Source: Cirrosporium novae-zelandiae
Lineage: Eukaryota
NCBI GenBank assembly: GCA_026023565.1
Contig: JAPETS010000023.1
Span: forward strand, 372,001 to 436,000
Length of the DNA: 64,000 bases
Reading direction: 5' to 3'
The notes under the pieces were generated by a model. The model searched no databases and was not told the origin of the DNA. It worked only from the letters and a program-made list of their open reading frames with translations. The position numbers were made by a program, and so were the translations under genes. Of this stretch, positions 2,128-29,699 are shown one piece after another; position 1 is the stretch's first letter; each line of letters opens with the position of its first letter.

Positions 2128-4010
2128 AATACGTAAAACGATTATATAACGTTTTTTCGGCGTTTTTTTTTATATATATTTTATTTTTATTTTTCGGGTA
2201 ATTAGATATTTTCCGTCTGTGGTTATATAGGGGCTTAGACAGTTTATATATTTCAATAAAATATATATATAAACCCCCGTGTACGCGGGTTTATATTCTA
2301 TTATCCGATATCGGTGGTTTTACGTTTCGTATATTTCCGCGTATATCGTGTATTTAAGGGCTTTATTCCTATATTCCAAAAATAATTTATATTTTAATTA
2401 GATATATTTTAGATACGTTTTATTTATTTTTAACGTAAATTATCGGATATATCGAAATCTATATTCCGTTAAATAATAATTTTCGATTTTTTATTTTTCG
2501 TATATTATAAACGGGAATTTTATTTTAATCGAAATAATATATTTTTTTAATATAAACCCGGTTCGTATTCGTTTTTAACGATATTTTTCCGGCGTTATTT
2601 ATACGATTATCATATTTCGGAATAATTAATAAATTTTTTTTAAATTTTTTTTTATTAAATTTAATTTATTTAAATTTTTAAATATTTTTAAAAATATTTT
2701 TTATATTTTTATTTAATATAAAATTTTTAATAAATATATATTTATTATCGTATTATTTATTTTTATTATAATTTTTAGAATTTTTTATTTATATTTAAAT
2801 ATTAATATATCCGTATTAATTTTTTTATCGAACGTAATTTTTAAATTATTTTTTTTATTAATATAGATTTCCCGTATTCGTAATTCAGACGGTACGTTTA
2901 AATCAATAAATTTAACGTTAATCGCCGTTATTATTAATATTATAGAACCCGGATATTTAATTTTTTTTTTATTAAAAATCAGTATTTTCTAATTTTCAAT
3001 TTTTATATCCCTATTTATAGAATCAGTACGTTTTTTTTTACGGGATTTAATTATTTATTATTTTTTATTAGATTTATCTACTATTTTATTAATTATTTTG
3101 GTATAAATAAACCCCGTAAATTCCGGCGTTATTTTTATAGAAATCTATTTCGGGGCTTTCGGTATTAACGGTAGGGTTTTCTGTTTAATTATTTTTACCG
3201 TTTATTAAAAATTTTTTTAAATTTTTTTATCCGTTTATATTATTGTCCGCGTATTAAATATTTACGATCTGGTTATTATATCCGTTCGGGATATTATTAG
3301 AAAAAATATTATTTTTTTTTTTTTATTATTCGTTCGGGTTTAATTATTAAGATTATATAATTTTTATTTATAAAATTTTTTATTCCGTTATATATAATTT
3401 TTACGGTTTTTATTTAAATTTATAATATTTAAATTATTGTTATAATTATTTTTTTAATTATTAAAAATTTTTATTTAATCGTATATAATTTTTTTTAATT
3501 TTTTTTTTAAATTTTTATAATTTTATTATATCGTTTTTTTAAAACGATTATTCGGATTTTTAAACCGAATAATATCTCCCGTAATTATACCGTAAAATTA
3601 TCGGTTTTTAGAATTTAATATATTTTTTCCCCGATTACGGGAAATATATATATTATTATATATTTAATCGTTTATTTAATGAAAATATTTTGATTATTAA
3701 TTTATTTTTTTTTAAAAATTTTTTTTTTTCGTAAAATCTTTCGACGATATTTTTTCGTTTAATCGTTTTTTTTTTAAAATAAAAATTATAATACCGAATC
3801 GCTAAATTTTATTATAAAATTTTATTTTAATTCGTTCGATTCGTTTTTTCGTATCCGTTTAATTTTCGTTAACGGTACGGATTTTTTTAATTCCCGATAT
3901 TTTTTTACTGTTACTAAATTTTATAGATTTTAAATAAACGTTAATTATTTCGTATAACGGTCGTCACAATAATGAATTGATTTGGAGGCGCGGGGTTATC
4001 AAAAAACGTT
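2128..4010 (-). mobile_element. Tad1-like LINE copy B, 5' part (5'UTR + ORF1), interrupted by copy A
   Basis: Colinear with 29838-31736 and ~57470-59350. Shares the conserved 5' terminus cgtcacaataatgaattgatttgg.ggcgcgggg..a.caaaa at ~3962-4005. Confidence 0.92.
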
Positions 4011-4799
4011 TTTTGATCTCCCAAAAAAACAATAAATATTCTATATTAAAACTAGATAATATAGATAATATATTTTTTATAAATTCAAATTTATAATCCT
4101 TATATAAAATAACGAAAAAAACCCGTATTATTTTTAATATATCTACTATAATTTAATTACTGGAATATATTATATATTATTTTTAATTTCTATTATAATT
4201 AAATCCTATTATTCGAATCTAAATAAAAATAAAATAATATCAGAATAATATTATTATTATAAACTGGTAATTATTATTTAATAACAAATATTATAATAGG
4301 ATCCCGTTTTATAACTAATAATATTCTATTTAAAAATACTATTATTTAATCTATTTTTTAAATTAATTTATTTCTTAATTTTCGGCCGTAAATCAAGTTT
4401 TTGACCTATATTCGAGAATTGATTTAAATTAATTAAATCCTTAAATTAATTTTCTGATTTAAATTAATTTCTGTTTTTATATTTATTTTATTTTTTATAG
4501 CGTATATTAAGAATAGAATATTCGATTTATTAATTTATTGCAAATTTTTGAAATTATAAAAAACGAAATCGAAAATATTTAACGGTCTAATTTAGCGTTT
4601 TCGAATATAATAAAACAAATAAAATATATATTATAATATTATTTATAAATATTAAAAATTATAATTTAATAAAATATATAATTTATAAATAAAACGTGAA
4701 TTAAAAAAAAAAATATTTATTATAAAAAATAATATTTTAATTTTTTAGAATTAATATTAATTTAATAAATAAAATTAATAATAATTATAATTCTAATAC

Positions 4800-5560
4800 T
4801 AAAATTTTTTTATATATTAAATTCTCGTCTATTATAAAATCCTGATTTTATATTAATATTTTAATAAAAATATAACGTATCAATTAAAATTTTTTATTCC
4901 GAAATCGCGAATAATATTCGAATTTTTCTCTAAATCGATTATAACCAAAAATTAATAATTATTATATTTATAAAATCTAAAAAAAAAAAATTTACTAATT
5001 CGGATATAAAAAAATATTCTGATAAAATTTTTTTAAACGTTAATAATATCCGGAATAAAATATTTTAGAATATTAATTATATATATAATAAATTTTTTAA
5101 TATTTTTATAAAAATTTCTAATAAATCGTATAATAATCGATTAAATCAATTCTATTAATTTTATAAAACGAAAAACGGACATTATTTAGAATAAATAATA
5201 AAATCAAAACGAAAAACGGACATTATTTAGAATAAATAATAAAATCAAAACGGAATCGTAATATTTTTATATAAATAATAAAATTGATTTATTATTATTA
5301 TTATTATTATCGTTTAACTATTAATTATTTTATTTCGGACCGGAATTACGTCGGTCTACGATCGGACGAGAATTGGGTAAAAATATCGAAACTACAATTA
5401 ATTTTTAGAAAAATCTAGAAAAAATAATTATAATTAATTATATATTAATATTCCTCGATATTAATTAGATACGATTAGATCGAATCGAAAATATATTATA
5501 TCGTTCTAATATTCGGGGATTTAATAGAAACGTAAAATTCTATAAAAATAATTCCGTTAA
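4800..5560 (+). pseudogene. RIP-degraded ORF relic, unknown protein
   Basis: Long frame whose stops are nearly all TAA/TAG (RIP-type), e.g. EIANNIRIFL*IDYNQKL... and FGPELRRSTIGRELGKNIETTI. No family recognised. Confidence 0.4.
5165..5246. repeat. Perfect 41-bp tandem duplication
   Basis: aaaacgaaaaacggacattatttagaataaataataaaatc occurs twice (5165-5205, 5206-5246). Confidence 0.95.
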
Positions 5561-5949
5561 TTATTAAATTTTCGATTATTATTTTTTTATTATTTTATCT
5601 ATTTAATTTTGATAGAAACGTTTACAAAAAAAATAATATATAAAATTAATAAATTTCTATTGGATTTTTTCTGAATTGGCTGGAAATTGAGTAATTTTAT
5701 TAAAAAATTTTTAAATTTTGGTTCGGATTATTTTAGCAATAATAATTTTGTATTTTCGATTTTTAGAATAAATTATACCGATACAACTAATATTTTTTTT
5801 AGAATCAATATATAGAATATCAAAAAAATATTAATTAAAAATAGAAAAACGTGAAAATTATATAATAAATAATATTTAAATAATTAGAATAAAATATGAA
5901 TATATAGGATTAGAAAAAAAACGGTAATCGAATAAAATAAAAATAGAAT

Positions 5950-6750
5950 AACAATCAGTTTAGAAAAAAAAATTATTTTTTATATATTTAGATATTTTTA
6001 GGCCAAAATAAAAATATAATTTTATTTCCCGAAATTTAATACGATCGTCGCCGACAATTTTTCGTATCTCAATATTTTCTAATATATATAAAATTTTCAC
6101 GTTAATTCGAATAAAATCAATATTAAGGCCGCTTCAATTATAATTATTATTTTATCAGACTATATATAGGTCTAAATCTAGTATAAAATTTCGATTCGAG
6201 GAATAGCAATATTAGCAATATATAATTAGAATATAATATATTATAAATTAAATATTTATTATAATTAAATCGATATATTTAAAAAAAAAATCGTTTAAAT
6301 AAATAAATAAAAAAATTATATATTTTAATTAATTCGTTAATCGATATATTATAATTTTTATTAAATTATATATTATATTACAAAATATATATTAGATCTA
6401 ATATCGTATCGTAAATATAAATAATAAAATAATATAACCGGATATAAAAATATTAAATATATTTTCGCTATATCAGAACAGCGAAAAAAACTGACCAAAT
6501 AAATAAATAAATAAAAAATATAAAAAATCACCGGAGAAATAATTGAAAATATATATTTGGATTTCTAAAATATATTTAAAATCTGGACCAAATATTTATA
6601 TTATATAAAATTCTATTTTTTAAAAATATATTTATTTTATTTCTGGGACCTTTCTATTAAGATTTTTGAATCTATTTAAAATCTTTATTTTATTATAAAA
6701 TAATGGAGCTAATAAATAGATTTTAAAAAATAATAAAATTAATCCTAAAA
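5950..6750 (+). pseudogene. RIP-degraded ORF relic, unknown protein
   Basis: Frame near 6394 reads DLISYRKYK**NNITGY..KYIFAISEQRKKLTK*INK*...KIWTKYL...YFWDLS. Protein-like once RIP is reverted; unassigned. Confidence 0.4.
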
Positions 6751-8149
6751 TCTTTAAATTATTATATTCCGTTAGAATCAATAAAATTATTTAATAAAAT
6801 TAATATTAATTAATAATTTATTATAATTAATTAATATATTAATATTTTATATAATAATTATTATATAATTTTATTTTTATATCAAATTTAATTATTTAAT
6901 AATAAAGAAATAATACCGATTTTTTGATTTATATTATTGCTCCTATTATTATTCGTTAAAAAAATAGAAATTTATTTATTAATTTTTTCTATAGAAATTC
7001 TAAACTTTCAGAATATAGCGTTGGAAATCGGATTATAAACGTAACGTTATTTAATATAAATATATTCAATTATCTATTTTTAAGGAATAATATTTAGGCT
7101 GACGATAATTTATTTGAATATATTTAATAATTATATATTTGAATAAACGATATAATTAAAATAAAAATTATATAAAAAAAATTGGTTTTAATATATTTAC
7201 GAATAATAAATTTGGAAGATTATATTAATAAACAAATATTTATTTAATCGATAATTTTTTATGGATTCGCTATTCTGTTTAATTATTATAGAATAGAAAA
7301 CTCGTATTCGATTAAAAAAAATTAAATTATAAAAAAAAAATAATATATAAAAAAAATTATAATCGCAGAATTCTAATATCGTATAAAATAAATTTAAATT
7401 ATTTATTTTTTTATTTATAAAATCAAAAATATATATATTCAGAAAAAACTACGATAATAAAAACAAAAATCAAAAATACGGTAAATATAAAAATAATAGA
7501 ATTTAAAATATATTCGAAAAAATTATATATTAACAAAAATAATATTCGGTAATATATTATTTTAGCGTAACCGGAATTAATATAAAAACTAGATTATGGA
7601 AAAAAAAAATAATAATTAATTGAAAAATAAATTTATATAAAATCTATATTTTTCTAAATTAGAAAAAATCTATCGATAAATAAATTCTAAATTATTTTTT
7701 TTATTAATATAATTTTTGGTTCGTATCTTTAAACTAAGATTTATAAAATATAGATTCAAACCCCGACCAAATACGGTATACAAATATTAAAAATTATATT
7801 CGTTCTCGATCTTAATCAATTAATCTGTATTATATTATGATTTTTTATAAAAATCAATTAATACTATAATATATTATATTATTAATTTATTTTATATTAA
7901 TTAAACTAATATTAATATTATAAAAATATAAAACAAAAATTATAATATAAATTATAATATTATCTAAAATAAAAGTTTTTTCTAAAAAAAAAATTCTATT
8001 ATTTTATATAAAAATATAAAAATAAATCTATAAAAAATATATTAATTATATTATCTAATTTTAGTACGGAATTTTCCGGAATATTATTTTATATCCTTAT
8101 TTATAATTGTAATTTTTGCTACTATTCGTTATTTAATCGCGAAACGGAT

Positions 8150-10230
8150 AATTTAGTTTTAAAAAAAAACTGTAGCGTTTTTTCCTAATAAACGGATTCC
8201 GATATCCGCTCCGCGTATTAATCGATAATCGTCTAGTTTTTCAATTTTGGTTATTTAAAAAATATATTTCTATTTTTTTTATTAAATTAATTTATATAAA
8301 TAGAGGTTTTCGTTATCGTTATATAATAAAACTGGGGATAATTTATAAAATATTAATAAATTTTTTCGACTAATTAAACGAATTTGAAAAATCCGTCAGA
8401 TTTTTTATTTTTATATTTAATAAATATTTACAATCTTTTTCAAAAAAAAATTAATATATTTAATAGATATAATAATAAAATTAAACGATTCGGAATTTTT
8501 TATATATTAAATATATATTAATATTTTTTTTTGATTTTTATTAATTATTTAATAATATTATTATTATTTTATATATTTTATTAAATATTATAATATCCCA
8601 AAATTATAATATTATTAATATATCCGTACAAAAATTCGATAATATTTATTTTAAATTTTTAACCGTTTTAATCAAAAAACGTTAATAAAGAATACGTACC
8701 TATATTTTTCTAAAAACCGAGGAATCAAATAATTAAAATCAATATTAATAAATTACGGTTTTATTCAATTTATTATTTATATTAATTAAAAATAGCCCGT
8801 TTATATAAATAAACGAAAGCCCGTAATCCGATATATTAAATTTTATACTCGATAACGAAAAAAAAAATTCTATAAACGAAACTGGATTATTAATAATAAA
8901 TTTTATATTTCAATCGTATTCGATAATATTAATTATATCAGAATAATCAAAAAAAATTTACCGCAAACGAATAATTAATTTCAAAAATTATTAATAAAAA
9001 AAATATTAAAACGAAAAAAATAATGATTCAGAAATATTTAATTATATAAAAAAATATTTAGATACCGGCAAATCAACTAAATAACGCTCAAAAATTAATT
9101 AAAAATTTCGAAAAACGGAATAATTTACGAAAGAAATCTCGAAAACGCCAGTTTTAATTATAAAATAACGAATAATAATAACAAAAATTACGGATTCTAA
9201 ATTAATTAAATACAGAATAAATTTTTATATCGAGAAAAAATTACTGGAATTATTAATTATAATAATAAAAACTTTTTTAATTTTAATTCTATTTTTTTAT
9301 ATAGATTATTTATTATATTATCAATATTATTTATTAATCGGATATAATTTTTTAAATAAACATTATTTTAATTTTTTTAATTCTAAATAATAATTGATTT
9401 CTGGTTTTTTTCAATTCGAATTATTATTCAAAAAAATTAATAAATATTAATATTCTAAATTATAAAAAATCTCGCGAATATTAGAATCCTATATTTAATT
9501 AATACCGACTAACGATTATTATATTTTTATCAAAATTATAATATTTAATAAAATTATAAAAATCTTTATAATTCGATAAATCTAATTTAAAATATATTAT
9601 ATTATAAATTATTTTAAAGAACCGTAAAATATTTTTATATTTTATCAATAAAATAGTTTTTTATTCTATTATTTTTATATTTAATTAATTTTTAAATCGC
9701 TAAAAATATTATATTTAATAAATTATTAAAAAATATCGTTCTAGAATTATTTATTTTTAATTAATATTTGTGGTTATCTATTTATTTTAAAAATAATAGA
9801 TCCGAATTATATCTATAATATTCGTCGATATATAGATTATTATATTATTTCTGTGTTTAATAAATTATTTTTTTATTTTTAAAACTAGATTTATTAATAA
9901 ATTTTATTTATTATTAATTATTATTAACGAATATTTTTTTTTTTTTTTTAATCGTTATATATCCAATCGTACTAAATAAATTCAAATATTAAAAATATAT
10001 ATATAATTTTTAGCGATTCTTTATATTTATTTTTTCTAAAAATATATAAAAGCAATTCTTAAAAACTATCCGGAAACTATAAATTCGGATATTTCGTTAT
10101 TTTTTATTCTAGATAGTTTATATATAAAAAAATTATAAAAATCCGGAATTTTTATTAATAAATTTTATATTAAATAATTAAATAAATAATACCAATTTAG
10201 AGAATAAATCGATTCCGATAAATATATTAG
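8150..10230 (-). pseudogene. RIP-degraded ORF relic, large unknown protein
   Basis: Minus-strand segments NSGFL*FFYI*TI*NKK*RNIRIYSFRIVFKNCF, NIFSDL, IFYGSL and NWRFRDFFRKLFRFS. Unassigned; extent uncertain. Confidence 0.35.
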
Positions 10231-11599
10231 ATTTTTCTGATATAGATTTTTTTTATAATATTTAATATTAATAAAATATTAACGATAAAAAATTTTTCGA
10301 TAATAATAAATAAATTACCGAAATTATAAATAAAAAAAAAAAAAAAAAATTAAAAAAAAAATAATTTAATAATATTTTATTTAATAATATTTTTTAATTA
10401 AATCAAAATAAATATTAACAAATTATTTCAAAGATTCTCCAGAATTAATTGAAGATTTTGAGAAACGGGATAAATCGCGGGGAAAACCTATTTAGTTTGG
10501 TAAATTTAATAATTAATAAATAAATAAAAATATTATAAATTAAAAATAAAAGTAGAACCTATTTTTAAAAAAAAATTGATTAATTAATTTATTTTATTAA
10601 ATTTTTTTACAATCCTTTAAATATATATAGTTTTTCGATAGTATTAATCTGATTTTATATTTTTATATTATTTAATTTATAATTTTATATATAATTTTTT
10701 AATTTTATTATAATCGTAATAGCTAATTAATTATATTATTATAATTATATAAAATTTTTAATTTTATTTAATAAAAAATAGTTTAATTTAAATCTATAAT
10801 TAATTATTTTACGTTATAATCATGATAATCCGGATCGGGTTCCAGTTTCTGACTAAATATAATATCTTTTCCATATTAGATTAGATTTTTTTGGTAATTT
10901 ATAATACGGTTTCAGAATATAGTTTTCTATAGAGGTTGAAATAATATTCCGGAAGATTCTATATTAAAATTAAATAATATAATTAAAATAATTAAAATAA
11001 TTTTAATTTATTATTTTTATATAAAATAATAAAAAAAAATAAATAAATTTATATTTTTTATTTAAATTAATATTTTTTAATATTAAATAACGGTTATCAA
11101 ATATTAAAAAAAAAAATACGTATAATAATACAAAATATATTTTATAAAATTCGTAAAAATAATTTCGACCAATTTTAGAATCTATAATATAGCCGATATT
11201 TTTTAAATAATATTTTATATTATTAATACGATTATTTTATTAATTATAGAAAAATTTTTAAAATTTTTTTTTTTTATTTCGTATTAATTTATTCTGAATA
11301 TCGTTAGATTATAAATTTTAAATATAAATTTAGGAATTTTTTTTTTATTATTTAATTTATCGGAAATTTGAATTCCGGTTTTTATTTTTCCGGAAATCCG
11401 TCGACCGAATTTTCTCGTTTTATTTTTAAAATATCTAGATTTAATATTGGAAATCGGTTTTTTAATAAACGTTATTTATTATAATATTATTTATATTTTT
11501 TTTTTAATATTCCGTTATTATAAAAATTGTTTTATTAATTATTTTTTTCGATTTTCTTCAAATTCGTACGAAATTAGTTCGAGATTTCTAAATTCTTTT

Positions 11600-12400
11600 T
11601 CTGTCGATCTATTTAATTTTAACGTAAATATATAGATATTTTATTTCTGGATTATATATTTTATTTTCGGCTAATATATCGGGATCTAATACGTCCAAAA
11701 TTTTTTTTCTAAAATCTTTATTAAATATTTATATAATTCTTTAAATAATTATAACGTTTTTATTAATATATATCTATTTTTTTTATATTTTTAGATATTT
11801 TTTTTTATTTTTTAAATCGGTAATATCAGGATTTTTTTTTATCGTAAATAATATCGATATTTATAATATCTTTGAATCTAAATATAGAAATATTTCGTAG
11901 ACCGTATTCTAGAAATAATTATATTTTCCGTTCAATTTCTTTTTTAATTACGATGCGTCCGCTATAATTTAATTCTAAACGTTTCCGGAATATTTCTAAA
12001 ATAAATAAAATTTTTAGATTATAATCGTTAATATTTAACGGTAATAAAATAGTTCTGTTCTTAATATCCGTAATAATTATTTTTAATATAAATAATAGAA
12101 AATTTTTTTCGGTAATTATATTATTTTTATCCGTTTAATTATATTTAGATTTTTTAAATAATTCTTTATTATTGTTTAGTTCTATCGTATTTTTTTTTAA
12201 ATTTTTTTTTTTTTTCAAACTTCTACCGTTTTTCGTCGCTCGAAATATTACGTAAATTTTTTTTAATTTTTTTTTTATAAACGTTATATTTTTTTTTTCG
12301 TTTAATTATTTTTTCCCGAATTTTATAAATTTCTAATTTCGGTTTTTTTTTTAGGATATTATTAGGAATTATAATAATTAATTTAATAATAGATTTTTTA
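11600..12400 (-). pseudogene. RIP-degraded ORF relic, unknown helical protein
   Basis: Continuous minus frame SSDEKR*KFEK...LLRILRTELFYYR*ILT...IIADAS*LKKKLNGKYNYF*NTVYEI...LFTIKKIL, with only TAA/TAG stops. Confidence 0.45.
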
Positions 12401-12471
12401 TATTAATAATTTTGATTTTTATAATATTTTAAATACGTAAATTCAATCGGGAAAATTTTTAATAATTAATC

Positions 12472-12730
12472 GGTATAATCAGAGGGTTAGTATAATTCGA
12501 AAACCAATATAATTCGAAAACCAGTATAATTCGAAAATTAGTATAATTCGAAAACTAATATAACTCAAAAATTAGTACAATTCGAAAACCAGTATATTTA
12601 TTTGGAGGGTACGTTTATTTGGAGGGTATTATTAATTAAAATAATCTAAAAATTGGTTATTAGTATCGTTATTTAAAAAACCCCAGAATTGGAGGGCCAC
12701 GTTATTTAAAAATATTTAGGAATTGAATTC
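12472..12730. repeat. 17-bp tandem array (~7 units, agtataattcgaaaacc) followed by related GGAGGG-containing units
   Basis: Units start at 12472, 12489, 12506, 12523, 12540, 12557 and 12574. These are followed by tttatttggagggta twice and aattggagggcc at ~12687. Confidence 0.9.
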
Positions 12731-12789
12731 TAATATTTTGTAGGACTTTAATAATTAATAATAGAAATTATTTTTTAATTATTTCCTAT

Positions 12790-13230
12790 ATTTTAGTTTT
12801 TTAAAGATCTGTAATATCCAATTTATTTAATATTTTCAGATATAAATAGATTGAATATCGCAAATTAAAAAATTCAATAAAAAAAAAATATAAAAATTAC
12901 GTAAAATATAATTTCTATTTTAATAATAAAAATAAAGAATTATATTTTTTTCGTATAAAAAATATTCGATATTATATATTTAAAATTATTAAAATAATTA
13001 ATATTATATTTTGATATTTATTTCCGATAATAATAATAAAAAGATCGCGTTATATTAGATATTCGTATCTGAAATACTAATTAAACTATTTAAAAATCGC
13101 GGATTAATAAATAAAAATTAATTTAGATATTATAAAAAATTTTGTAAATTTAAAGAATATTTAAAAAATCGGGAAATAGAAAAATAAAAAATTTATAAAA
13201 CCAGAAATTCGATTATTTACGTATATTTTT
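12790..13230 (-). pseudogene. RIP-degraded small ORF relic, unknown protein
   Basis: Minus frame FLVL*IFYFSISRFFKYSLNLQNFL*YLN...LICDIQSIYI*KY*INWILQIFKKLKYR. Confidence 0.4.
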
Positions 13231-13449
13231 TTTTTATATTATTTAAACAAAAAAACAAATAAACAAAAAAATTATATAAAAATTAAATTATATTTAAATA
13301 TAATTATTTATTTTTTCTAATATATTTTCTAGATTTTGAATTCGATTTTTAATTAAAAAATATTCTATAATTATTATTAATAGACTTTCTATTTTAATTA
13401 AAAAAAACAGGGTTTTTTCGGTAGATATTCTATTATCGTTTATTATAAA

Positions 13450-13870
13450 CGGTGATTTAAATAAAAAAAAATAATTTAAAATCGAGGGATTTTGAATTTT
13501 AATTTTCGAGAACGATTTAAAATTAAAATTTATAGGATTTTTACGAATTAATAAAAAATAATATCGTTTTTAATATAATTAATAAAAAATTCTTAATTTT
13601 TGAATTAAAAATAAAAAAAAAAATTTATAAAATTATTTTTTTTTAATAATTATAATAATAGGTTTTTAGAATTATAAATTATTAATCGATTTTTTTTTTA
13701 ATAATTATATAGATTTTAGTATCTGAAATTTTTACGATATCGTTTATTTTTTTTAAAAAATTATTTCGGCGTTTACGAAATTATTTATTCAAAATTTTAT
13801 TAAATTTTTTGAAATCGTTTAATTTATTCGTTTTTTTAGATATATTTATAATAAAATATATACGTAATAA
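13450..13870 (-). pseudogene. MADS-box/SRF-like small DNA-binding protein (RIP-degraded)
   Basis: Minus frame NK*FRKRRNNFLKKINDIVKISDTKIYIIIKKKNRLIIYNS reverts to FRKRRNNLLKKA.D.A...DA..Y.VI....YNS, matching the MADS core F.KRR.GL.KKA.EL..LCDA.V.LI. Confidence 0.65.
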
Positions 13871-14129
13871 ATATAATAATTTGTTTTTTTAATCGAATAT
13901 TCGATATTAATATAATACGTTTTAATTTATTAATTACGGCGATATCCGTCAGCTAAAAAAATAGTTTTTTTTTAATTAAATTCCTTCCCCCCCCCCCTGA
14001 AATAAATTTTTTTCAAAATATATAGAATAATTAAATTATTTTTTAAAATATTTAGGCGTTCTATTAAATCTTATTTTGGAAAATATAATATTTATCGAAA
14101 TAAACGTAATTATTTAATACGGAATTTTT

Positions 14130-15900
14130 TTTTATAGAATATTTATTTTCTGGATTTTTTTACGTTTATTTATTCGGTTTTTTTTATAGATCGGATTTTT
14201 TTTCGTTTTTTTATTTTTAAAATATTTTTTTTATTCCAATTTTTTTTTACGTACTCGACTGGTTCGAATTTATATTCGATTTCGTTCATTTAATATTATA
14301 ATATATTTTATAACGAATATCGTATATATAATTATTCGAATAAATTCGAAAAATTAATTCGCGGATAGAACAAATTTATTATCCATGATTAATTTAATCT
14401 TTTTTTTTATCGGATCACGGTTTTATTTTATTTCGAATTATTTAGGAATTTTTTTCGATAATTTTATAATTATATATAAATGGATTAATAAAATAATTAT
14501 TTTCTAAAAAGTTTTCCGTATCGTCCTTTATTTATTGAATAATTTTTTATTGAATTAATATTCGGCAAATATTATAATAATATAATGATTTTTTTATATT
14601 TTTTTTTCTATAATTTTATTTGCTGGGGCTAATATATATATTTATTAGAATAATTCTATTATATTATTAATAAATATTATATTTTTAATTTTTTTCCGAA
14701 AATTCGTTTATAAAATCTTCCTCCAATATTATATAATATTTTTTATTATTATTATTATCGTTTTTTAGCGATATAATCGATAAAAAAAAATAAATATAAT
14801 ATTTTTATTTAATAATATCGGTTTCTAGTTTTATTCAACGATTATTTATTAGGGTATATTAATTTTTAAAAATTTTTTATTTTATAAACCTTTTATAAAG
14901 GCCAGAATTTTTTTTATTAATATTAATATTTTAAAAATTACTTTAGCCGTTCCTAAAAAATAAAATATTAAAACGGGGCAATATATATTATTATATATAC
15001 CACAAATTAGTTTCTAAAAAATTTTTTAAAACCATTTTTTTATAATAATTTGGTAGAACTAAAACGAAAACAATAATTTACAGATTATTTATTTAATTTA
15101 ATACCGAAAAAATTTTACCGTTCCATTTTTGAAATACCGAGATTAATTATTATTAATTATTATTAATAAATCCTATAAAATATCTTACGATTTCGATTTT
15201 TTCGGTATAATTATTATATTTATAATTAATATCGGAATTACGGGCTATTTATTTTATTTAAACAAATTTATATACGGCTATAATAATCGTATAATTCGGA
15301 TTCGATATATTATATTTATCTAATAATTTAATAAAAAATATAAATAACGTTTTTAATTTTAAAAATTATTTTTTATTACTGAAATTTATTTTAGATTATT
15401 AAAAATAAATTAGCGAATAAATAAATAAAATATTATAAATTAATATTAATTATATATAAAATCCCGAATAATAATTTTATAATAATTTTAATATATTTTA
15501 TAGATTCTCAAAATATTTTTTTATATATTAAAGAATTATTTTGTCCCGAAATATTTTATTAAAATCGTTTTTTATAAATATTATAATAAAATTCGTATTA
15601 TATATACCTCTGCGAAAATTAATAAAATTCTGAAAAATAAAATTATTAATCGAAAAAAAAAAAATTTTATTTCAAATTTATATATAATATTTTAAAATAG
15701 TTCAAAATTTATATTATTAATTTATAAATAATATATATAAATAAAATCAAAAATAATATAATTAAAAATTGTATTACGAATAAAATAAATAATAATCTAC
15801 GTTTTATTTAATTAAATTTCTATTTTTCTATTAAACCGCGACCGTTATTATCGGAATTAGATTATTAGTATCAAAAAAAAATATCGGAAAAAATTATTAA
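14130..15900 (+). pseudogene. Ferric reductase-like (FRE/NOX family) flavocytochrome, RIP-degraded, with introns
   Basis: TM region ADRTNLLSMINLIFFFIGSR...LGI...YKWIN (RAGLLSMINLIPLF.G.R; H.W.G). FAD region LAVPKK*NIKTGQYILLYIPQISF*...NHFFIIIW* (P..W...GQY...P...HPF..WW) and RKNFT (R.GFT). NAD region INKSYK (DGPYG), FGIIIIFIINIGITGYLFYL (GTVVMFA.GIGIAGHLPYL) and RIR.I.FI** (..WQ). Confidence 0.85.
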
Positions 15901-17599
15901 ATTCCGAAATAATCAATCGTAATAAATAATTAATTTGAAAATTTTTTATTTTCGTTAATTTTTTCAATTAATATATTATTATTTACGGTTAAATATCGTT
16001 ATATTTAATTTTGAATATACCAAAAATTTTAATAAATTAAAAAAGATTTTTTAAATTTGAATTATATTTATATTTAGTGAATTTTATTATTATTAGCGGA
16101 AATTTTTACGTATTTAGTTTTTTTTTATTTAACGAAATTATTTTTTTTTATAACGAAATTTTTTATTATGAAACGTATTTTCTAATTTTTAATAAATTAA
16201 ATTTTTTAAATATTAAGATCTAAAAAATTTGGTTTTAATAATAAAATTTTTTAGTCTATATTATTTTTAAATATTACCTATTTATTGGATAACGGAATAA
16301 AATATATTTATATATTTAAATTAATATACAATTCTATTATTTAGGAAATTCCAAAAAATTATAATCAATTAAATATATTAATAAAAACCTAATAAACGAA
16401 AACCTAAAAATTAAAAAAAAAAATCCGGTTAATATTATTATTTTAATTATAATATATTTCTAACGGCAATAAAATCTAGATATCCTTAAGTAAAAAACGA
16501 TTAAAATAATAGAAATATTTATAATCTATCTGTTAATTAAAAAATATAATTAAAATTTATTAATACTATTTAATATATTTAATAAAAAATTAATAAATAA
16601 TAATAAAAAAACTAATAAATAAATTTTATTTTATTTAAACGTAAATATCTAAGGCAACAATATATAATTGAAAAAAAATTTATAATATTTTTACGTTACA
16701 ATAGAAATATATTAAAAAAAATATTAATAAAAAAATTGATCTAAACGATACTAAAATATTAAGAATCTCTAACGTTAATAATAAATAAAATATATAATAC
16801 GGTTATAATATAAATATTAAATTTAATAAATAACTATTATCTAAATATCTATATTTAATATATTCCAGAAATTAAACTATTTATATTCTGTTCTAATTTA
16901 TTTATCCGTAAATTATTCAATTTTATTATTTAACGTAAATATATATTCGTATTCAATTTTTATAATTATTTTTTTTTTTAAAAATAATATACGACCTTAA
17001 TTTTTTACGCAAATTAATAAATATTATCTCGGAACTATTATAATAAATCAAAATATTTTCGATAAAAACTGATTTTTAAACGTAAATAACTAAATCTTTT
17101 TATAATTTTTTCAAATTATTATTTTATATTTAATAATAAATATTTTTTAGCCGTTCGTAATCGAAAAAATTAATTTCCGGCGGTTTAATTTTTATATATT
17201 TTATATTTAATTTTTGGGATTCTATAATTTTTGATAGTTCTAGAAAAAATATATTAAAAAATTAAGAAATCTGAAATTTATTTTTAATTTATTTATAAAT
17301 AATATAGATTTAGAAAATATCGGATCTATAATATTTTAATAATTAAAAAAAAAAATAATAAAAATATTGAAATTAAAAATTTTTTAAATTAAAATTTTTT
17401 ATAAAAAAAACGTTTATATTTATATTTATATTACGAAAAAATAAACGGTCGAATTTTTTAATATTAAATTTTTTTTATATAAATTATTAATTATACATTC
17501 GTTACGTATAATATTATTTTTTAAAAATAATTATTCTATCAATTTAAAAAATAAAAATAAATTATCCACGAAATTATAGATTAACGAATCTTATAATAT

Positions 17600-18560
17600 T
17601 TCTAAATTATATAAAAAAGGCTAATTATATATTTAGAACTAAAAAAATTTACGTCCGTTTCAATTACCGTTACCGGAAAAATTGAAAATCAAGAATTTAA
17701 TCGAAAAATTTATATAATTTTTTAATTAAAAAATAAAATTTTTTTTTAATAATTATTAAAAATATTTTAAATTAAATTATAATAATTTAATCGTTTTCGT
17801 TTATTAGAAAAACCCGTTATTTAAAATTATAATTATTAAAAAAAATTCTATTTATATTAATAAAAAAAAACTAATATTTTTCAAAAAATTATATTATTTT
17901 AAGATTTTGATTTTATTTAATATATATATTTATAATAGTTTTATTACTATTATTTATAAATACCGAAATATATATATTTTTCTATCTAATATTATTATTT
18001 ATCCGTTGAATCTAAAAAAATATTATATTACAACGATTTATTCCGAAATAAAATTAATTTATTTATTTTTTTTTAAAATAGAATTAATTTATTTAGATTT
18101 TAAATAATATTTATTTTTTTTACGGTATTTTTTATTATATATATAGTTTTATTTAATCTAATAATATATTTTTTTTTATTTATAATAATATTAAGATCGG
18201 TAATATTTTTAAAATTTTCTAAAAATTTTTAGAATACTAAATTTATTAATATAACGAATATTAACGATAATATATTATATAAAAAATATATTTTTATTTT
18301 TTTAATAAAAAATCTTCAGAATCTCAATCGATTGATTTTACAAATAATAAAAATAAATACCGATTAAAAAAAATTAAAATTACTATATTTTAAAAATCCT
18401 GAAAAATAATTTTTTGAAACACAGGATTTAACGACGAAAAAATATATTTTATATAATTAAAATAAAAATTTCTAAATAAAAAATAATTAGAATTATTAAA
18501 AAAATATAATATAATTTATTTAGAACGATTAAAAACCGAGAATATTATAATAAAAAAATA
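17600..18560 (+). pseudogene. Protein kinase-like (pseudokinase-like) gene, RIP-degraded
   Basis: Includes the given ORF 17907-18107 (..IIYKYRNIYIFLSNIIIYPLNLKKYYITTIYSEI, reverting to VYEY...SL..VVACPL.L.E..IATIC.E). Upstream IIIIKK (VAIK); downstream YSFI*SNNIFF..YNNIKIG (H..I..SNVLL...G.VKI) and LKNPEK*FFETQDL (P..WS..A.DF). Confidence 0.7.
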
Positions 18561-19399
18561 TAAAACGTTATTTAAATCCGCCGTAAAAATAGTTCTCGAT
18601 TTTTATTTAGGAAATATTAATTTTTTTATTTTTTTAAAATTATTATTTTCTGAAAAAATCCTAATATTTTTTTCCTCGATATTTGCCGAATTATTTCCAA
18701 TTTCCGAAAAAACGGCGTTTAACGATTTAATAATATTTATAGAATTTTTTATAATATAAATATTAGACCGAAAAATTATTTTATTCGATAATAATATTTA
18801 TATCGAATTCCTAAAAATCGTTAAAAACGAAAAATAATTTCTGAAAAATAATAATATTAATACTAATATATCTAATAATTTATTCTCCGAAAAATATATA
18901 AATTACGTATTTTATAATAGTATTTTTTAATAAATCGATTTTTATTTTATAAATAATATATATTTTTCCGATTAAAATCCCGAATTCTAAAGATTTTCTA
19001 AAAAAAATATATTATTTCAGAATATTGAAATAATTAAAGGTAATTCTAATTTTTAATCTCGAGTTTTTTAAACGTAAAATAATATAGATTTTATTAATCT
19101 GAATTTAGATTCAGCCACCTAAAATCTATTAAATTTAGAAAAACCGAGTTCGTTAGAATATATAAATAAAATTAAAAAAATATTATTAATAAATATTTTT
19201 ATATATTATAAAAAATAAAACGGATTTAATTCCAGTTAAAATAATAGATCTATAAATAATAAAAAATATTAGTAGATTATTATACGTATATAATTATATA
19301 ATATAATTTAGATATATTTTTTATATAAAAAAATAGAGCACAGTTTTATTTTTTTAGAAAATTTTTAATTTTGTATTTTTGAAATAATAATAAACGTGA

Positions 19400-20200
19400 A
19401 TATTTAATTATATAAATAGCTAAATATATTTAATAAATATTTCGTTAAAAAAAATAATAATTTTTTATTTTTAACGTCCAGATTTTATATTTATAAATAA
19501 AAATTACGGTAAAAACGAAATCGATTTTTTTAAAAATCGTTCAATATACCGAATAATATTAAGAATTTTATAAATTTCTAATATTTTTATACTGCGTAAT
19601 ATATATTATATAATATTAACGTAAATTAAAATATTTATTAGAAATATTAAAAACGATCAATCCTTTAATTAAGATTTTTTAAAAAAATTCTATTAATACG
19701 TGAATGAAACTGAAAAAATTAAAAAAATCTCCTAAAAAAAATTAAAATAAAAAATAATTCGATACGTTTATTATTAATAGATTTTAAATATTAAACGTTA
19801 TTAATATTTTTTATACAAAAAAACTCTAATATCTAAACGATATAAATATTAGATATATAGAAATATTTTTTAAATAAAATATAATTAATATAAAAAATTT
19901 CAATCAGTTTTTAATATAATATATAACGTTACGCAAAAAAATAAACGATTTATAAATAAATTTATAAAAACGAATAATAATTTATAAATATAATCGGAAA
20001 AAATAAAAAAAAAATCGAACGATTTTAAAACGTTTATCGGTAATATTATAAAAAATTATAACGTATTAAATAATTAATTAATATTAACCCAGCGGCGACT
20101 AAAAATAACGAAAAAAAATTAATAAAATCTGAATTCTTTCAATCGATAACGAGTTTAGAAAAATTAAAAAAAAATTAAAAAAAACACGATTTATTTAATT
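19400..20200 (+). pseudogene. Possible coiled-coil protein relic
   Basis: Purine-rich, E/K/Q-like frame including LILTQRRLKITKK. Weak evidence. Confidence 0.25.
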
Positions 20201-21149
20201 TATATATATAATAATATTTTATAATATAATATTTTATTTTTTGAGAATTACTAATATATTTTATAAAATAATTGAGTATTAATAATATTATAAAATTATT
20301 AATTCTTAAAATATTTATTATAAAATCTTAATTCTTTAATTATTTTTAGGATTTTTTTTATACGTATTAATCGTAGATTAATATTTATAAGAATAATATA
20401 ATTAAAATAAATATTATATTTCGTAATTTTTTGGAATAATATAATAATAAAACTGCTGCGAAATAATATTTTAGAATTTTATAAAAATTATTTTTTTGAA
20501 ATAATTTATACTAACGTAATCGGTAATATTCGATATAATTAATTAAATCAAAATATAATCAGATATTTATAAACTAATAAATTACGGAAATATTTCCGAA
20601 AATACATAATAAATCTTATTTTTTTTATTTATCGATACGATCGTTTTAAAATTATTTTTTAGCGGTTACCGAAAACAAATATTAAATTATAATTATATAA
20701 AATTAATAAATAATCTTTATTATAATTTATCTCTTAAAATTAAATACCGAATTCGAGATTTTTATATAAAAAAAAATATTGTGAATCTAGAGTATAGGCC
20801 AGAATTAGATTATACGTAGGAAAAGCCGGGGATAATAATATTATAGGGATATAAATTATATTAGAAATTATTTTAAAAAAATTTTATTTATAGGAAATTT
20901 AGAGCTCAAATCCGAGTATAATTACGATTCATAAATTTAAATTATAAAATTTTTATTTATAATTTTATATAGATTTATTTATAATATTTAAAAATATTAT
21001 TTATTATTTTATTCAAAAATAAATATTATAAAGATTATAAATATAATTAATCTAAATTTATAGAATTTTTATTAAGATTTTATATAAGAAAAATTTGTAT
21101 TAATAAAAAAAACTAAATATTTAATATCGAAATTTTTTAGAAAAAAACA

Positions 21150-24100
21150 GAATATTATATAAAATAATTTTTTTCCGTCCGGCCTTTTCGCAACGGCCAG
21201 AATATCGATACTAACGATAAAATAATAGATCAATTATTTAATAATTTAGCGTACCAAATTTTATATCTAATATTTATTGCTATACGAACCAAAAAATCGG
21301 ATAAAAAAATCTATTGATTTTTCGAAAAAATAAATTATTTAGAATTAAATAAATAAAAATATTTTCGTCGAAATATTAAATATTAAATACGATATATTTT
21401 TTAAAATAATCGTATATTTCGTATCCGTCCTAGTAATTCAAAATACCCAGAATGATTTTGTTATAAATTATAAAACGAACCGTTGGAAATAATCGAATTA
21501 TTTTATTAATAAACGCGTAATTATTAAAACTACGATTTAATATTAATTTATAATATCTATAAATATCTCTAAAAAATAATAGAAAATCGTCGAATTCAAA
21601 ATAAAATATTATAATCTATAATATTTTAATAATAACGTATAAATTATTATACGTAAAAAAATAATAAATTATATTATAACGAAATTCTTCTATTTTATTT
21701 ATATTATTAAAATCTGGTTCCTTTCTTTATAATATAAAATTGAGCCGAAAATAATTATTTTTTATTATTTTATTTAAATAATTAATATAATTATTCCAGC
21801 TAATCTAACCGTTTATAAAAAAAATTATTTTTAAATTCGGAATAATTATAAAATAAAATTATCGTAAAAAATACTTTTAATAAAAAATATTTTAGATAAT
21901 ATAAATTGAAAAAAAAAAATCGGTACCGACGGAAATTATAATATCCGGTTTTAAATCTATCGGCTAGATTTGGAATATTTTTTATAATTAAATATCGATA
22001 AAATTATTATATTTCAAATCTCCGTTCTATAATAATCCAAATTTAAAAAAATACGGAGAAAAATATTTTATATTAATTAATCTGGGTATAAACGAATAAT
22101 TAGAATTTTTATATTTATAATTTATTATAAAATAGCTAAAATATATTTAATATTTTTTAAACGATTAATATAAGAGTTTAAATAGCAAAATAAAAAAATA
22201 TACGTTTTTTAAATTATAATTTTGTTTATAAAATTCTTCGGTCGGAATATTTTGTAATCTATAATTATATCGTCAGGGATATTATTAAAAAAAAAACTAA
22301 AAATATAAAAATAAAAATAATATTTATTTAAATTAATTCCACGATTTCCAGTTCTATTATAATTGGTAAAAAAATAAAATTTAGCGTTAATAATAATAAT
22401 TGCGGTAACTACGATTTTAATATTAAATAATTTCGAGATTATAATATCAAACAAACGGCGATTTATTCCAAAATTTTTTTATAAATATTTCTTTATAATT
22501 ACAGGGTTATAATAGCTATTAAAAAAAAATCACGAAACGATTAAAACGATTAAAAAACGTTTTATTTTAATTAAAATTTTGAAAAAAAATACGTTTAACG
22601 AATTTATTAAAATCGGATTTATAATTTTCTATATTCGAATATTAAATAAATAATTTAAGAATAAAAAAACTATTTATAAATAATTAATAAAAAAAAATAA
22701 TTAAATAACCCGTTATAATAAATCTGAATTAATATTAAAAACGTAGTTAAAATATTTTTAAAAAAAATAAAATAGATTTAAAATTTATTAAAAGATTTCG
22801 AGAAATTCTAATATAATAATATTTCGTATATTTTTTCCGTTAATATATAGTAGACGTAGTTTAATAATTAATAATTTTAAATTTATCGATATATTTATTT
22901 ATTTTATATATAAAATACACTCGGTAAAATCATAATAATACGGATTATTTTTTTGGGATATACCGAAAATACGGACGCAGATATTACAGATACTATATTT
23001 ATAGATAAAAATATATTTAGAATTACGGCGAAAACAGAAAAAATACGTTTTCGTATTTTTAAAAACGGTCCAAAATATAGACCAGGATTGGAGATTTTTA
23101 TAATATATTTCAGAAACACGGCTATCTATTTTAATCCGTTAGAATAAAATCACGAGACGATTTTTAATAAATTAATAGAAAATTTATATTCGAATTAAAA
23201 AATAATAATTATAGATAATATTTAAATAGAAATTTTCGTATATCTATTAGAAAATAACCGTTAAATCAAAATTTATTAAAAAATTATTAATAACGTCGTA
23301 ATTTATAAAATAAATTAATATTTTTAATAATTTACGAGATATATATATAAAATAATTATTGAAAAAAATAACGGAAATTATATATATTATAAAAATTTCT
23401 TTAAAAATATCGTTTATTAAATATATTTATTTAAAAATATTAAAATATATAATAAAATTTTTTATTACGATATTTTTTTTTCGGTATATTTAAATATAAT
23501 CGAACGATTAATTAATAATCGATACAATATATTTATACGTACGATCGAAAAATACACTGAAATAGATAGCAGAAAATAGGGTATAAAATCGAATTCGAAT
23601 ATCCCGTATATTATTAATTTTTTTCGAAATCGTTTTTTAGAACGGTAAGTACGCCGAAAATCTTAATAATTGATTTCTATATAAAAAAAATAAAAATTTA
23701 CAAAATAAAAAAAACTAAAAAAATAAAAATAATTTAATAACGAATTCTTTAGAATTAATTTCAGAAATAATAATAATAATTCGAGATCGAACTAAAAAAA
23801 TAGATGAATTATATTAAATTTATATCTATAATTAATTAATAATATTTATTAAATCACCGTAATTATCAGCGAATAAATAAAAAATATCTATAAAAATAAA
23901 AAATAGTCGAGTATAAATAGCGTTCATAAAATTCTGATAATTCAGATTTTCAGCCCTATTTAGGATTCGGAATTAAATTATTTCGTAATAATTATCGTAG
24001 TAAATAATTTTAATAGATTTATTATTAAAATTATTATCGATAAATAACGTTAAATATATATTATTAATCGATTTTTAATCGATATAAAAATTTACGATAT

Positions 24101-24330
24101 TATAATTTCGACGTTTTAAAATATTATTATCGCGGTAAAAAATTTAAAATATTTCCGTTTTGATTTTTTTACCGGAAAAAAAAATCAATATCGGATATTA
24201 TTTAATAAAATAAAATAATTTTTTAATAATTTAATTAAAACGAATTCTATACATTAATAATTAATTATAATTTTTTTATTTTTTTTTTTAATATCTGTAA
24301 TTATTGAACGTGTATATAATTTATTATAAT
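21150..24330 (-). pseudogene. Patatin-like phospholipase (PLP) with upstream RING-like Cys cluster, RIP-degraded, with introns
   Basis: Minus strand, in order: KTYFFCFRR.SKYIF.YKYSICNICVRIFG (C..C.RR.PEH...CGH.ICD.C..FG, ~23050-22960); LKLLIIKLRLLYINGKNIRNI (KPPTAG.RLL.IDGGG.RG); YFNYVFNINS (FD..FGTSSG); RRLFD..KIVVTA....AKF.FFTNYNRTG.R (given ORF 22209-22454); *NGDLKYNN (QDGGL.HNN); PDIIISVGT; RKINRFF...WFV*Q* (KISGFP...WF.QQ). N-terminal RFN*IIKKL....*YPIL.F.GKK near 24230. Confidence 0.9.
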
Positions 24331-24849
24331 TATTAAAAATAAAAAAAAAAAAATATTAAAATTTTTTTTAATAACGTTAGATTCTTTATTTTTTAATAAT
24401 TAATTATATAATCCAAATAATAGAGATTCACCGAATATTAAAAATATAATTATAATATCGTTTATTATCAAAATTAAATAAATATTTTTTTATAAAAAAA
24501 ATAATAATTTAATAAAAAACTAATTTCAAAATTATTTCTATTTTTATAATATCATTAATTTAATCGACCAAATTTATAAAAAAAAATAATCCTGTTTTCG
24601 CGGAATAATACGTATAGATTTATAATATCTCTAATTTAAACGTTTAATACGGGAGCTCGATTATATCAATATATTTCGTCTAATTAACGTATTCAAAAAT
24701 AAATAAAATTATAATCGATTAAAACCGGAATATTATATTTTTATTTTTATTAACGACGAAAATTTGAATCTAATATTATAAAAATTTAATATAAATCTAA
24801 TCGATTTTTTTAAATTATAAACGGAATTATATTATTTTATTAAAAAAAA

Positions 24850-25442
24850 ACGTTTTTTAGTGATCCTACACCACTAAATCAATTCACTATTATAACGACC
24901 GTTATACGAAATAATTAACGTTTATTTAAGATTTATAAAATTTAACAGTAATAGAGAAATATCGGGAATTGAAAAAATACGTATTATTAACGAGAATTAA
25001 ACGGATACAAAAAAATAATAATATTTAAAAAACGAATCGAACGAACCAAAATAAAATTTTATAATAAAATTTAATAATTCGGTATTACGATTTTTATTTT
25101 AAAAAAAAAACGATTAAACGAAAAAACGTCGTTAAAAGATTTTACGAAAAAAAAAAATTCTAAAAAAAAATAAATTAATAATCGGAATATTTTAATTAAA
25201 TAAACGATTAAATATATAATAATACGTATATTTCCTATAATCGGGAAAAAAATATATTAGATTTTAAAAACCGACGATTTTATAATATAATTACGGGAAA
25301 TATTTTTCAATTTAAAAACCCGAATAATCGTTTTAAAAAAACGAAATAATAAAATTATAAAAATCTAAAAAAAAAACCAAAAAAATTATACGCGATTAAA
25401 TAAAAATTTCTAATAATTAAAAAAATAATTATAATAATAATT
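24850..25442 (+). mobile_element. Tad1-like LINE copy D, 5' portion (interrupted by copy C)
   Basis: Begins aacgttttttagtgatcctacaccactaaatcaattcactattataacgacc, the reverse complement of the family 5' terminus. Resumes at 31754. Confidence 0.9.
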
Positions 25443-25789
25443 GATGATGATGATTATTCATTATTTTATATCTATATGCCGTTTAGAAACTATAACGGAC
25501 TCTATTCGGGAGTTTTTAGACCCTTTCGTATCCTTTTTCGGGCTTATTTTTAGTTAAAGTGATGGGGGTTACTCCTCTGGTTCGGCTATATAGTTTCCCC
25601 CTTTTTTTGGGTTTCCTAGAATTATCTGATTTATTTAACCGGATAATTTTTTAGCGTTATTTCGGTGTTCGTAACCTATAAATAGATTTATTCGTATTTA
25701 TTTTCGATTTTTTTAGTTTTTATTTACGTATACGTTTATCCCGCGTATCTATTACGGGCCCAGTTTTTATTTAATATCTACGTTTGGGT

Positions 25790-29620: not shown

Positions 29621-29699
29621 ATCATATTTTTTATAATAATTATATTATAATATTTTTATTTATAACTCGGATATATCGCTATTTATTTACGGTACGGGT

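Follow-up and report, generated by a model that had tools for sequence, protein, structure and literature searches.

The window analysed here is a 64,000-nucleotide stretch of the Cirrosporium novae-zelandiae genome (GenBank assembly GCA_026023565.1, contig JAPETS010000023.1, positions 372,001 to 436,000 of the forward strand), and all coordinates count from its first letter. It contains a 20.8-kb block that is saturated with repeat-induced point mutation (RIP) and carries the dead relic of a gene of the ferric reductase (FRE)/NADPH-oxidase (NOX) family. The relic of a small conserved gene, here called gene X, lies beside it, and part of an RSN1/CSC1-like channel gene lies near the far end of the window. 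A first-pass annotation of the same letters had described the block as roughly ten packed gene relics, including FRE-like, MADS-like, kinase-like, and RING and patatin genes, and had read them as a RIP-killed Starship giant transposon later colonised by long interspersed nuclear elements (LINEs). The principal features are as follows.

4015 to 24844, no strand: block, RIP-saturated and unique within the window (purine/pyrimidine 28-mer cover, GC content)
14100 to 15919, plus strand: FRE/NOX-family pseudogene (Pfam, phmmer, tblastn, RIP-aware alignment, RIP-blind profile)
17002 to 17178, minus strand: relic of gene X, a small conserved ascomycete hypothetical gene (open reading frame matches, five-sequence profile)
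63490 to 63855, plus strand: N-terminal (RSN1_TM) relic of an RSN1/CSC1-like channel gene (blastn, nhmmer, profile)

The ferric reductase relic and its RIP-saturated block

RIP consists of transitions only and leaves the purine or pyrimidine class of each base unchanged. Because RIP never alters this class, the window was compared with itself in a two-letter purine/pyrimidine alphabet, using exact 28-mers that are blind to transitions, with the reversed sequence as a decoy. The window holds 34,272 direct and 39,162 inverted 28-mer seeds, versus 55 in the decoy. Cover by these seeds is 0.00-0.16 per kb inside the block versus 0.66-1.00 for nearly every kb outside about 4015-24840. The block is therefore unique within the window, as the first-pass annotation had held, while nearly everything else in the window consists of repeats. 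Among sequencing runs, just one was found to contain the block; it may be the block's own source and is uninformative on habitat or copy number. The edges of the block are the shared terminus of the flanking repeat. A gapped blastn search of the block in the recoded alphabet returned small internal repeats only, with no decoy matches, and a codon-class self-comparison of block against window found nothing beyond these small DNA repeats. A looser purine/pyrimidine blast of the window was discarded, as its decoy scores equalled those of the real matches.

The GC content of the block is 14.5% (11.9-16.8% across it in 2-kb steps), and that of the whole window is 16.4% (8-29% over 2-kb steps). No ATG-to-stop open reading frame (ORF) of at least 100 aa occurs across all 64 kb, in agreement with the earlier description of some 20 kb without an intact ORF. 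In 4-kb steps, the dinucleotide pattern of RIP is present throughout the window, with observed/expected ratios of 3.7-10 for CpG, 0.13-0.41 for CpA and 0.10-0.44 for TpG; (CA+TG)/(AC+GT) is 0.17-0.73, and TA/AT is about 1. Near-saturation far from LINEs, also claimed earlier, is borne out by these window-wide indices at positions 9-10 kb from the nearest recognised repeat. The mutations take the form expected of RIP: transitions between repeat copies and C>T or G>A changes against an unmutated homologue, together with depletion of CpA and TpG.

The FRE relic begins at 14100 with a start codon that reads ATA (from ATG) and ends at 15919 in the RIP-aware alignment. It runs in frame 3 at 14100-15674 and, after a 65-nt gap that represents an intron or an indel, in frame 2 at 15740-15919. 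The gene is placed by tblastn at 14118-15674 (frame 3) and 15740-15916 (frame 2), and the same search finds no second FRE copy in the window. A 500-residue piece with the FRE domain, chosen by stop depletion and periodicity and with stops read as the letter X, matches Pfam FAD_binding_8 at about 14895-15086 (E 0.0049; 17.4 bits, under the 22-bit cut-off). Positions 13950-15899, read through in the same way, were searched with phmmer against 1.84 billion representatives. This query matches 370 proteins at E values of at most 1e-3, 70 at 1e-10 or below and 3 at 1e-30 or below. The best match (1.7e-38) aligns query residues 57-463 to residues 7-408 of a 418-aa FRE. Ferric_reduct, FAD_binding_8 and/or NAD_binding_6 are found on 19 of the 20 phmmer matches checked (18 among the top 20); a phmmer search of PDB with the relic gave no match.

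The relic follows the domain order of its family, Ferric_reduct, then FAD_binding_8, then NAD_binding_6, and like members of the fungal ferric reductase/NADPH-oxidase family it gives a full-length colinear match, over about 585 codons, to three-domain proteins. Its read-through translation contains, about 66 residues apart, RIPed versions of motifs of the HPFT and GxGxT types. Unlike working ferric reductases, the relic is dead: it has an ATA start, one frame break and 34 in-frame stops, of which 32 fall within the first 525 codons and 2 within the last 60.

A search blind to RIP gives the strongest match. Proteins and the six frames of the window are recoded into four letters, according to whether codon positions 1 and 2 hold a purine or a pyrimidine, and searched with hmmbuild --dna and nhmmer; the reversed frames serve as decoys. 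A profile of 149 FRE matches, with the homologue P0008 left out, finds 14088-15674 at E 3.8e-72, whereas the best decoy scores E 52. A profile of the 12 weakest FRE matches still reaches E 9e-42, and a single weak match alone reaches E 1e-9. The earlier call of an FRE-like gene thus stands on Pfam FAD_binding_8, phmmer and the RIP-blind profile alike.

P0008 is a public protein of 239 aa whose NAD_binding_6 domain aligns with the relic as far as its own C-terminus, at 15916. A codon is counted as RIP-compatible when it can be derived from the residue of the homologue by C>T or G>A alone, and by this measure 93% of the 235 aligned codons are compatible with P0008, at a raw identity of 46%. The next best FRE homologue reaches 69%, and the median of 125 is 53%. 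Relative to P0008, the relic carries C>T or G>A at 105 of 153 inferable G/C positions (69%) and other changes at 10, whereas only 8 of 207 A/T positions (4%) are changed. Each of the nine aligned stops faces a Gln (6) or a Trp (3) of P0008. The FRE gene was killed by C-to-T and G-to-A transitions that recoded about two thirds of its G:C positions and turned Gln and Trp codons into stops. By this alignment, P0008 is almost the unmutated gene. No relative of P0008 was found in JGI metagenome contigs.

Neighbours of the ferric reductase gene

Relatives of the FRE gene are encoded at 74 JGI metagenome loci, which were retrieved with an alignment of P0007, P0009, P0010 and P0008. Their best segments share 23-52% identity with the query, and the loci include up to 10 kb of flank. 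Reduced-alphabet blastn of the window against these loci places 41 of 45 high-scoring segment pairs in the FRE relic (16 loci) and the other 4 at 63583-63842, with none from the decoy. In a single-query search with nhmmer, 518 ORFs from the 17 closest loci were compared with the window in the reduced alphabet. They give 44 matches in FRE and 2 at about 63490-63852 (E 1.2e-10 and 1e-9), and the orthologous gene X ORFs of five loci (L266, L265, L261, L267 and L269) match 16.9-17.18 kb on the minus strand at E 0.0012-0.018. The decoy for this search has a single match, at E 0.21.

Gene X is a 165-184-aa ORF in other contigs, with no Pfam family, and adjoins FRE in six loci (L259, L261, L265, L266, L267 and L269). 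Its nearest Atlas clusters are Ascomycota hypothetical proteins (score 0.88), which is a lead only. In the window, its relic lies about 1.1 kb downstream of the FRE relic on the opposite strand. The ORFs that match at 63.5 kb carry the Pfam domains RSN1_TM and RSN1_7TM. The RSN1 relic scores 63-65 bits by reduced-alphabet blastn and E 2.2e-14 with a two-sequence profile, and it probably continues beyond the end of the window.

The order FRE, X, RSN1 is found in two un-RIPed fungal contigs, L266 and L269, where the RSN1-like gene lies 5-8 kb from FRE; in the window it is 47.6 kb away. L266 has FRE on the plus strand, X on the minus strand and RSN1 on the plus strand within about 10 kb, and the window has the same order and strands over about 50 kb. 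The first-pass annotation had named synteny with core genes as an outcome that would speak against its Starship, and this is largely what is found: the order is kept in both contigs, and all three orientations match L266. The relics that are securely identified are host-type genes in a conserved order.

Genes around FRE relatives were also scanned with Pfam, using 68 ORFs of at least 140 aa from 7 loci only, with flanks of up to 10 kb. They encode FRE domains, GH18, P450, RSN1, APH, Chromo and a weak SRF-TF, and none of these 68 ORFs matches DUF3435, DUF3723, Patatin, NACHT or HET. The weak SRF-TF ORF (L270:4446-4949, minus strand; E 4.6e-5, 23.2 bits, under the 26-bit cut-off) stands divergently beside an FRE relative. 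A MADS gene next to this FRE clade would echo the earlier MADS-like call; no MADS relic was found in the window. The APH ORF of L265 found nothing in the window. Matches at 7547-7915 on the minus strand (E 5e-4 to 9e-3), from an ORF of seven near-identical distant FRE contigs, arose in a search with 1646 ORF queries from the 57 more distant FRE loci and were set aside as lying within the decoy level.

Other coding relics and the flanking repeats

Stop depletion and periodicity mark further parts of the block as formerly coding. Ten stop-depleted frame segments score at least 8, versus 1.7 expected from shuffles, and period 3 in purine/pyrimidine space exceeds the 95% shuffle level in 16 of 68 windows of 900 nt; several more dead ORFs are therefore likely. 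The earlier claim of roughly ten relics holds to the extent that more coding relics are probable; the number itself is plausible and not confirmed. The following segments and internal repeats belong to this part of the block.

21283 to 24197, minus strand: largest ORF relic (stop depletion; phase 2 at 24197-22128, then phase 0 at 22272-21283)
11767 to 13317, plus strand: stop-depleted frame, score 12.1, no Pfam match
11829 to 12305, minus strand: stop-depleted frame, score 9.3, two stops in 150 codons, no Pfam match
5606 to 6790, minus strand: stop-depleted frame within a 4-kb inverted-repeat unit, score 11.0, no Pfam match
16845 to 18104, plus strand, phase 2: stop-depleted frame, score 10.0, no Pfam match
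18327 to 18902, minus strand, phase 2: stop-depleted frame, score 9.8, no Pfam match
18487 to 18927, plus strand, phase 0: stop-depleted frame, score 8.5, no Pfam match
4033 to 4110, plus strand: internal repeat of about 100 bp, copy a (recoded blastn, E 1e-7 to 3e-4 for all three copies)
7995 to 8090, minus strand: the same repeat, copy b
10937 to 11034, plus strand: the same repeat, copy c

The largest ORF relic has stop-depletion scores of 22.4 and 10.2, versus a shuffle maximum of 15.4, and the period-3 signal at 21.0-24.6 kb spans it. It is real as an ORF remnant, and searches of it against Pfam, PADLOC and PDB and by words gave no match. On the minus strand it contains a RING-like 'YKYSICNICV' near 23003 and 'NGKNIRN' at 22841 (a possible RIPed DGGGxRG), with 'NINSD' about 29 residues past the latter and a DGG..NNP-like site at 22032. 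RIP-compatible motifs of GGGxRG, GxSxG and DGG type thus lie at 22841, about 22740 and 22032 on the minus strand, a chain for which about 0.4 occurrences are estimated by chance. These short RING-like and patatin-like motifs are probably what the first-pass annotation saw.

Searches for named families beyond FRE are largely negative. Pfam finds no families in long read-through translations of 4001-14500, and in short pieces of the block it finds only FAD_binding_8 and a noise match to CSD_RNase_II (E 0.24). PADLOC finds nothing in the block. A word-based homologue search also found nothing; its length filters and similarly skewed candidates probably hid true relatives. RIP-aware codon log-odds scans, which have low power, place 15% of windows in the block above the 95% shuffle level, versus 11-25% in the LINE-like copies.

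The patatin, kinase and NACHT families were searched with RIP-blind profiles built from bacterial, not fungal, sequences. The profile of 73 bacterial patatins has a best window at E 20, versus E 12 in decoys. As a control, a profile without cyanobacteria recovered 29 of 30 cyanobacterial loci at E<1e-3 with a nearest identity of 24-40%. Pfam (PF01734) and PADLOC also give no patatin match in the block. The profile of 30 bacterial Hanks-type kinases has a best window at E 110, there is no Pfam Pkinase (PF00069) match, and an active-site pattern has 0 exact RIP-compatible matches versus 0.25 expected; the kinase control found 15 of 15, at an easier identity of 34-73%. The NACHT profile is negative and, with only 6 sequences, has low power.

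The MADS and RING calls were examined with patterns, of the PROSITE type in the case of MADS. Every site in the window departs from the RIP-compatible MADS pattern at more than 3 of its 18 positions, and the L270 ORF with the weak SRF-TF match reaches only E 8.6 (decoy 1.3) in a search whose single-sequence power is low. RING gives 3 RIP-compatible pattern matches versus 1.7 expected, which is chance level. Matches to short RIP-compatible motifs, among them HPFT, GxSxG, DFG, APE and Walker A, are as frequent as chance predicts and were given no weight. The earlier calls of patatin, kinase, MADS and RING genes are therefore not upheld by these profiles and patterns. Among the Pfam families that had been proposed for the block, FAD_binding_8 is recovered, whereas Patatin, Pkinase and SRF-TF have no match.

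Small repeats inside the block include the roughly 60-100-bp copies a and b, an inverted pair 4 kb apart, and an 80-bp direct pair at 9059-9138 and 10409-10488. The unit at 4033-8090 with its inverted repeats may be an old DNA transposon of the terminal inverted repeat (TIR) type. A short tandem duplication at 12470-12560 has purine/pyrimidine seed units 17 nt apart (12482 versus 12499) and appears as a repeated peptide in several frames.

Both flanks of the block are formed by a 6.3-kb repeat that is present in the window as seven copies or fragments, some of them nested. The two flanking pieces are listed here.

2171 to 4014, minus strand: left flank, 5' part of LINE-like copy c5, its 5' end abutting the block
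24845 to 25442, plus strand: right flank, 5' end of LINE-like copy c3, which resumes at 31743-37543

Copies of the 6.3-kb repeat diverge by 10-27% transitions versus 0.1-1.7% transversions. Copy c1 (25443-31742) is nested in copy c3, and rejoined c3 aligns to c1 over 6232 nt. The repeat has no long terminal repeat (LTR) or TIR, sharp ends common to its copies and an (ATC/ATT)n tail at one end, and its A-rich sense strand, with the strand inferred from a RIP-aware coding score, is coding-like over about 6 kb. This structure of no LTR or TIR, a coding-like strand, a 3' tail and nesting fits a LINE. Pfam finds no families, and no reverse transcriptase, in the six frames of copy c1, and a group-II-intron reverse transcriptase profile, which has low power, is negative against the repeat. 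The de-RIPed consensus of the seven copies has a GC content of only 32% and a longest ORF of 127 aa, and copy c3 has no recognisable target-site duplication (TSD).

The edges of the block (4014 and 24845) adjoin the inferred 5' ends of two diverging copies of this repeat. Both edges abut the same repeat terminus, and the block is therefore framed by an inverted pair. This framing is taken as coincidence, given that the 6.3-kb element also occurs nested away from the block. The idea of a giant element with 6.3-kb inverted ends was dropped, since the repeat on the flanks moves on its own and has nested copies in other parts of the window.

A further segment of about 7 kb occurs twice in the window, at 37.8-44.3 kb and at 49.2-52.8 kb plus 59.6-63.4 kb. 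Its second copy is interrupted by a full LINE-like copy (53190-59420) and a 1-kb LINE fragment (60696-61730), and a strong period-3 signal lies within the segment at 42.3-44.1 kb. The strongest purine/pyrimidine period-3 signal of the window (13.0 versus a 99.9% shuffle level of 6.6) lies at 48.0-49.5 kb, where it overlaps the only non-repeated stretch outside the block (kb 49). This is probably another dead gene.

Origin of the block

The block is, with somewhat better than even probability, a remnant of ordinary chromosomal DNA with once-working genes that now lies in a repeat-invaded, RIP-saturated, AT-rich region. A gene neighbourhood of about 10 kb would have been stretched by transposon insertions, and LINE-like 6.3-kb elements and the duplicated segment of about 7 kb do lie between the FRE and X relics and the RSN1 relic. 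RIP directed at the repeats would then have degraded the resident unique DNA as well. By one route, RIP may have spread over many sexual cycles from nearby repeats, among which there may be old ones that are no longer recognised, like the 4-kb unit with inverted repeats. By another, the whole segment may once have been present twice, a past duplication at which P0008 hints. The other stop-depleted frames would represent either additional dead genes or old transposons.

RIP-degraded AT-rich isochores of Pezizomycotina are repeat-rich, gene-poor blocks whose resident genes are mutated by RIP. The window resembles them in its very low GC content, its depletion of CpA and TpG with CpG retained, its nested retroelements that differ almost only by transitions and its pseudogenes with Gln or Trp codons turned into stops. 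Compared with the classic isochores, its GC content is lower (8-29% per 2 kb and 14.5% in the block), and at least three identifiable host-gene relics keep their ancestral order across about 50 kb.

Several observations weigh against this account. Saturating RIP (GC of about 13-15%) lies 9-10 kb from the nearest recognised repeat, which is more than leakage of the textbook kind would give; the segment, whether or not it was mobile, may therefore once have been duplicated. The 93% RIP compatibility with P0008 means that a close intact copy exists somewhere, and this copy may lie in the same genome. In L269, FRE is inverted relative to X and RSN1; the orientation of FRE relative to X differs from that in L266, and the neighbourhood is therefore not rigid. 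Taken alone, the five-sequence profile of gene X gives a modest result (E 0.002; best decoy 0.32), and the contigs that carry FRE relatives might be mobile cargo in their own right. Most of the block, including the largest ORF relic, has no family assignment.

A mosaic of old transposons, with FRE as the sole host gene and the other relics as transposon ORFs, is a possible though doubtful origin. A stop-depleted frame lies between the inverted repeats of about 60-100 bp, which are 4 kb from each other and have a third copy at 10937-11034, and repeats make up nearly all of the window outside the block. However, X, which stands beside FRE, counts among the host genes in other fungi. The block yielded no transposon domain, a negative with little power because the same tools also failed on the LINE-like element.

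Duplication of FRE, X and RSN1 by some means other than a Starship, whether segmental or of a whole chromosome, would have exposed them to RIP and left an intact or better-preserved copy elsewhere. RIP needs duplicated DNA and is saturating here far from recognised repeats, P0008 is far closer to the relic by RIP compatibility than the next homologue (93% versus 69%), and the segment at 37.8-44.3 kb that is present twice in the window means that segmental duplication has happened here. This history is nevertheless unlikely: the window contains no second copy of the block, P0008 was not found among the JGI metagenome contigs, and RIP normally damages both copies.

A RIP-killed Starship would be a multicopy, captain-driven giant transposon that carried FRE and accessory genes and was later cut by LINE insertions. 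Gluck-Thaler et al. (2022; PMC9156397) define a Starship as a TSD-bounded region with a DUF3435 gene at its 5' end, and a Starship-like region as one that has DUF3435 together with DUF3723, FRE, PLP or NLR genes but lacks TSDs. FRE belongs to the four gene families described there as colocalising with Starship captains. The same source (PMC9156397) also describes degraded Starships without a captain ('Derelict' regions), defined by at least three matches to DUF3723, FRE, PLP or NLR genes without DUF3435. Like these regions, the block has FRE and no recognisable DUF3435, is affected by RIP and is colonised by other mobile elements. Unlike them, it has yielded only one conserved Starship family where that definition asks for at least three (PMC9156397), and its FRE neighbourhood is common to contigs that show no Starship genes.

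The block can still be argued to be such an element, since FRE is a captain-associated family and captain-less degraded Starships are on record in that source (PMC9156397), RIP is saturating across 20.8 kb of window-unique DNA and a close intact FRE homologue exists in public data. In addition, the largest ORF relic (24197 to 21283, minus strand) has its start about 650 bp inside the right edge and points into the block, which is the expected place of the captain if the element is inverted. The balance of evidence makes a Starship quite improbable. Only one of four accessory families is found: the patatin profile is negative with a control of 29 of 30, and NACHT is negative with 6 sequences. 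DUF3435 was not found by Pfam hmmscan of the whole block read through its stops, a low-power scan that recovered 1 of 3 FRE domains; DUF3723 was not found by the same scan, which was the only test used for it and is equally weak. X and RSN1 accompany FRE here as they do in un-RIPed contigs, and no Starship hallmark appears among the 68 ORFs around 7 FRE relatives. Since the RSN1 relic is found on the far side of the LINEs and outside the block, the conserved neighbourhood exceeds the proposed element in extent. The ends of the block are LINE insertion points and not termini of its own.

The most specific form of this proposal, an inverted RIP-killed Starship with 24197-21283 (minus strand) as its captain and FRE and X as cargo, is very unlikely; if it were true, the source of P0008 would be a copy of that element that is still alive, either in this species or in a different one. 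What survives of the earlier interpretation is that genes, FRE included, were destroyed by RIP and that LINE-like elements flank the block and are nested; the dead Starship is not supported.

As remnant chromosomal DNA, the block would be a biologically ordinary case of genes lost to RIP in a transposon-swollen, AT-rich region. It also carries a caution, as a ferric reductase in RIPed DNA is not in itself evidence for a Starship, and comparison of neighbourhoods here pointed the other way. The reduced-alphabet profile found FRE at E 3.8e-72, whereas Pfam on the raw translation gave only E 0.0049. The locus is thus a worked example in which a dead gene and its ancestral neighbours are recoverable even at about 14% GC, because the purine/pyrimidine class of each base survives the transitions of RIP.

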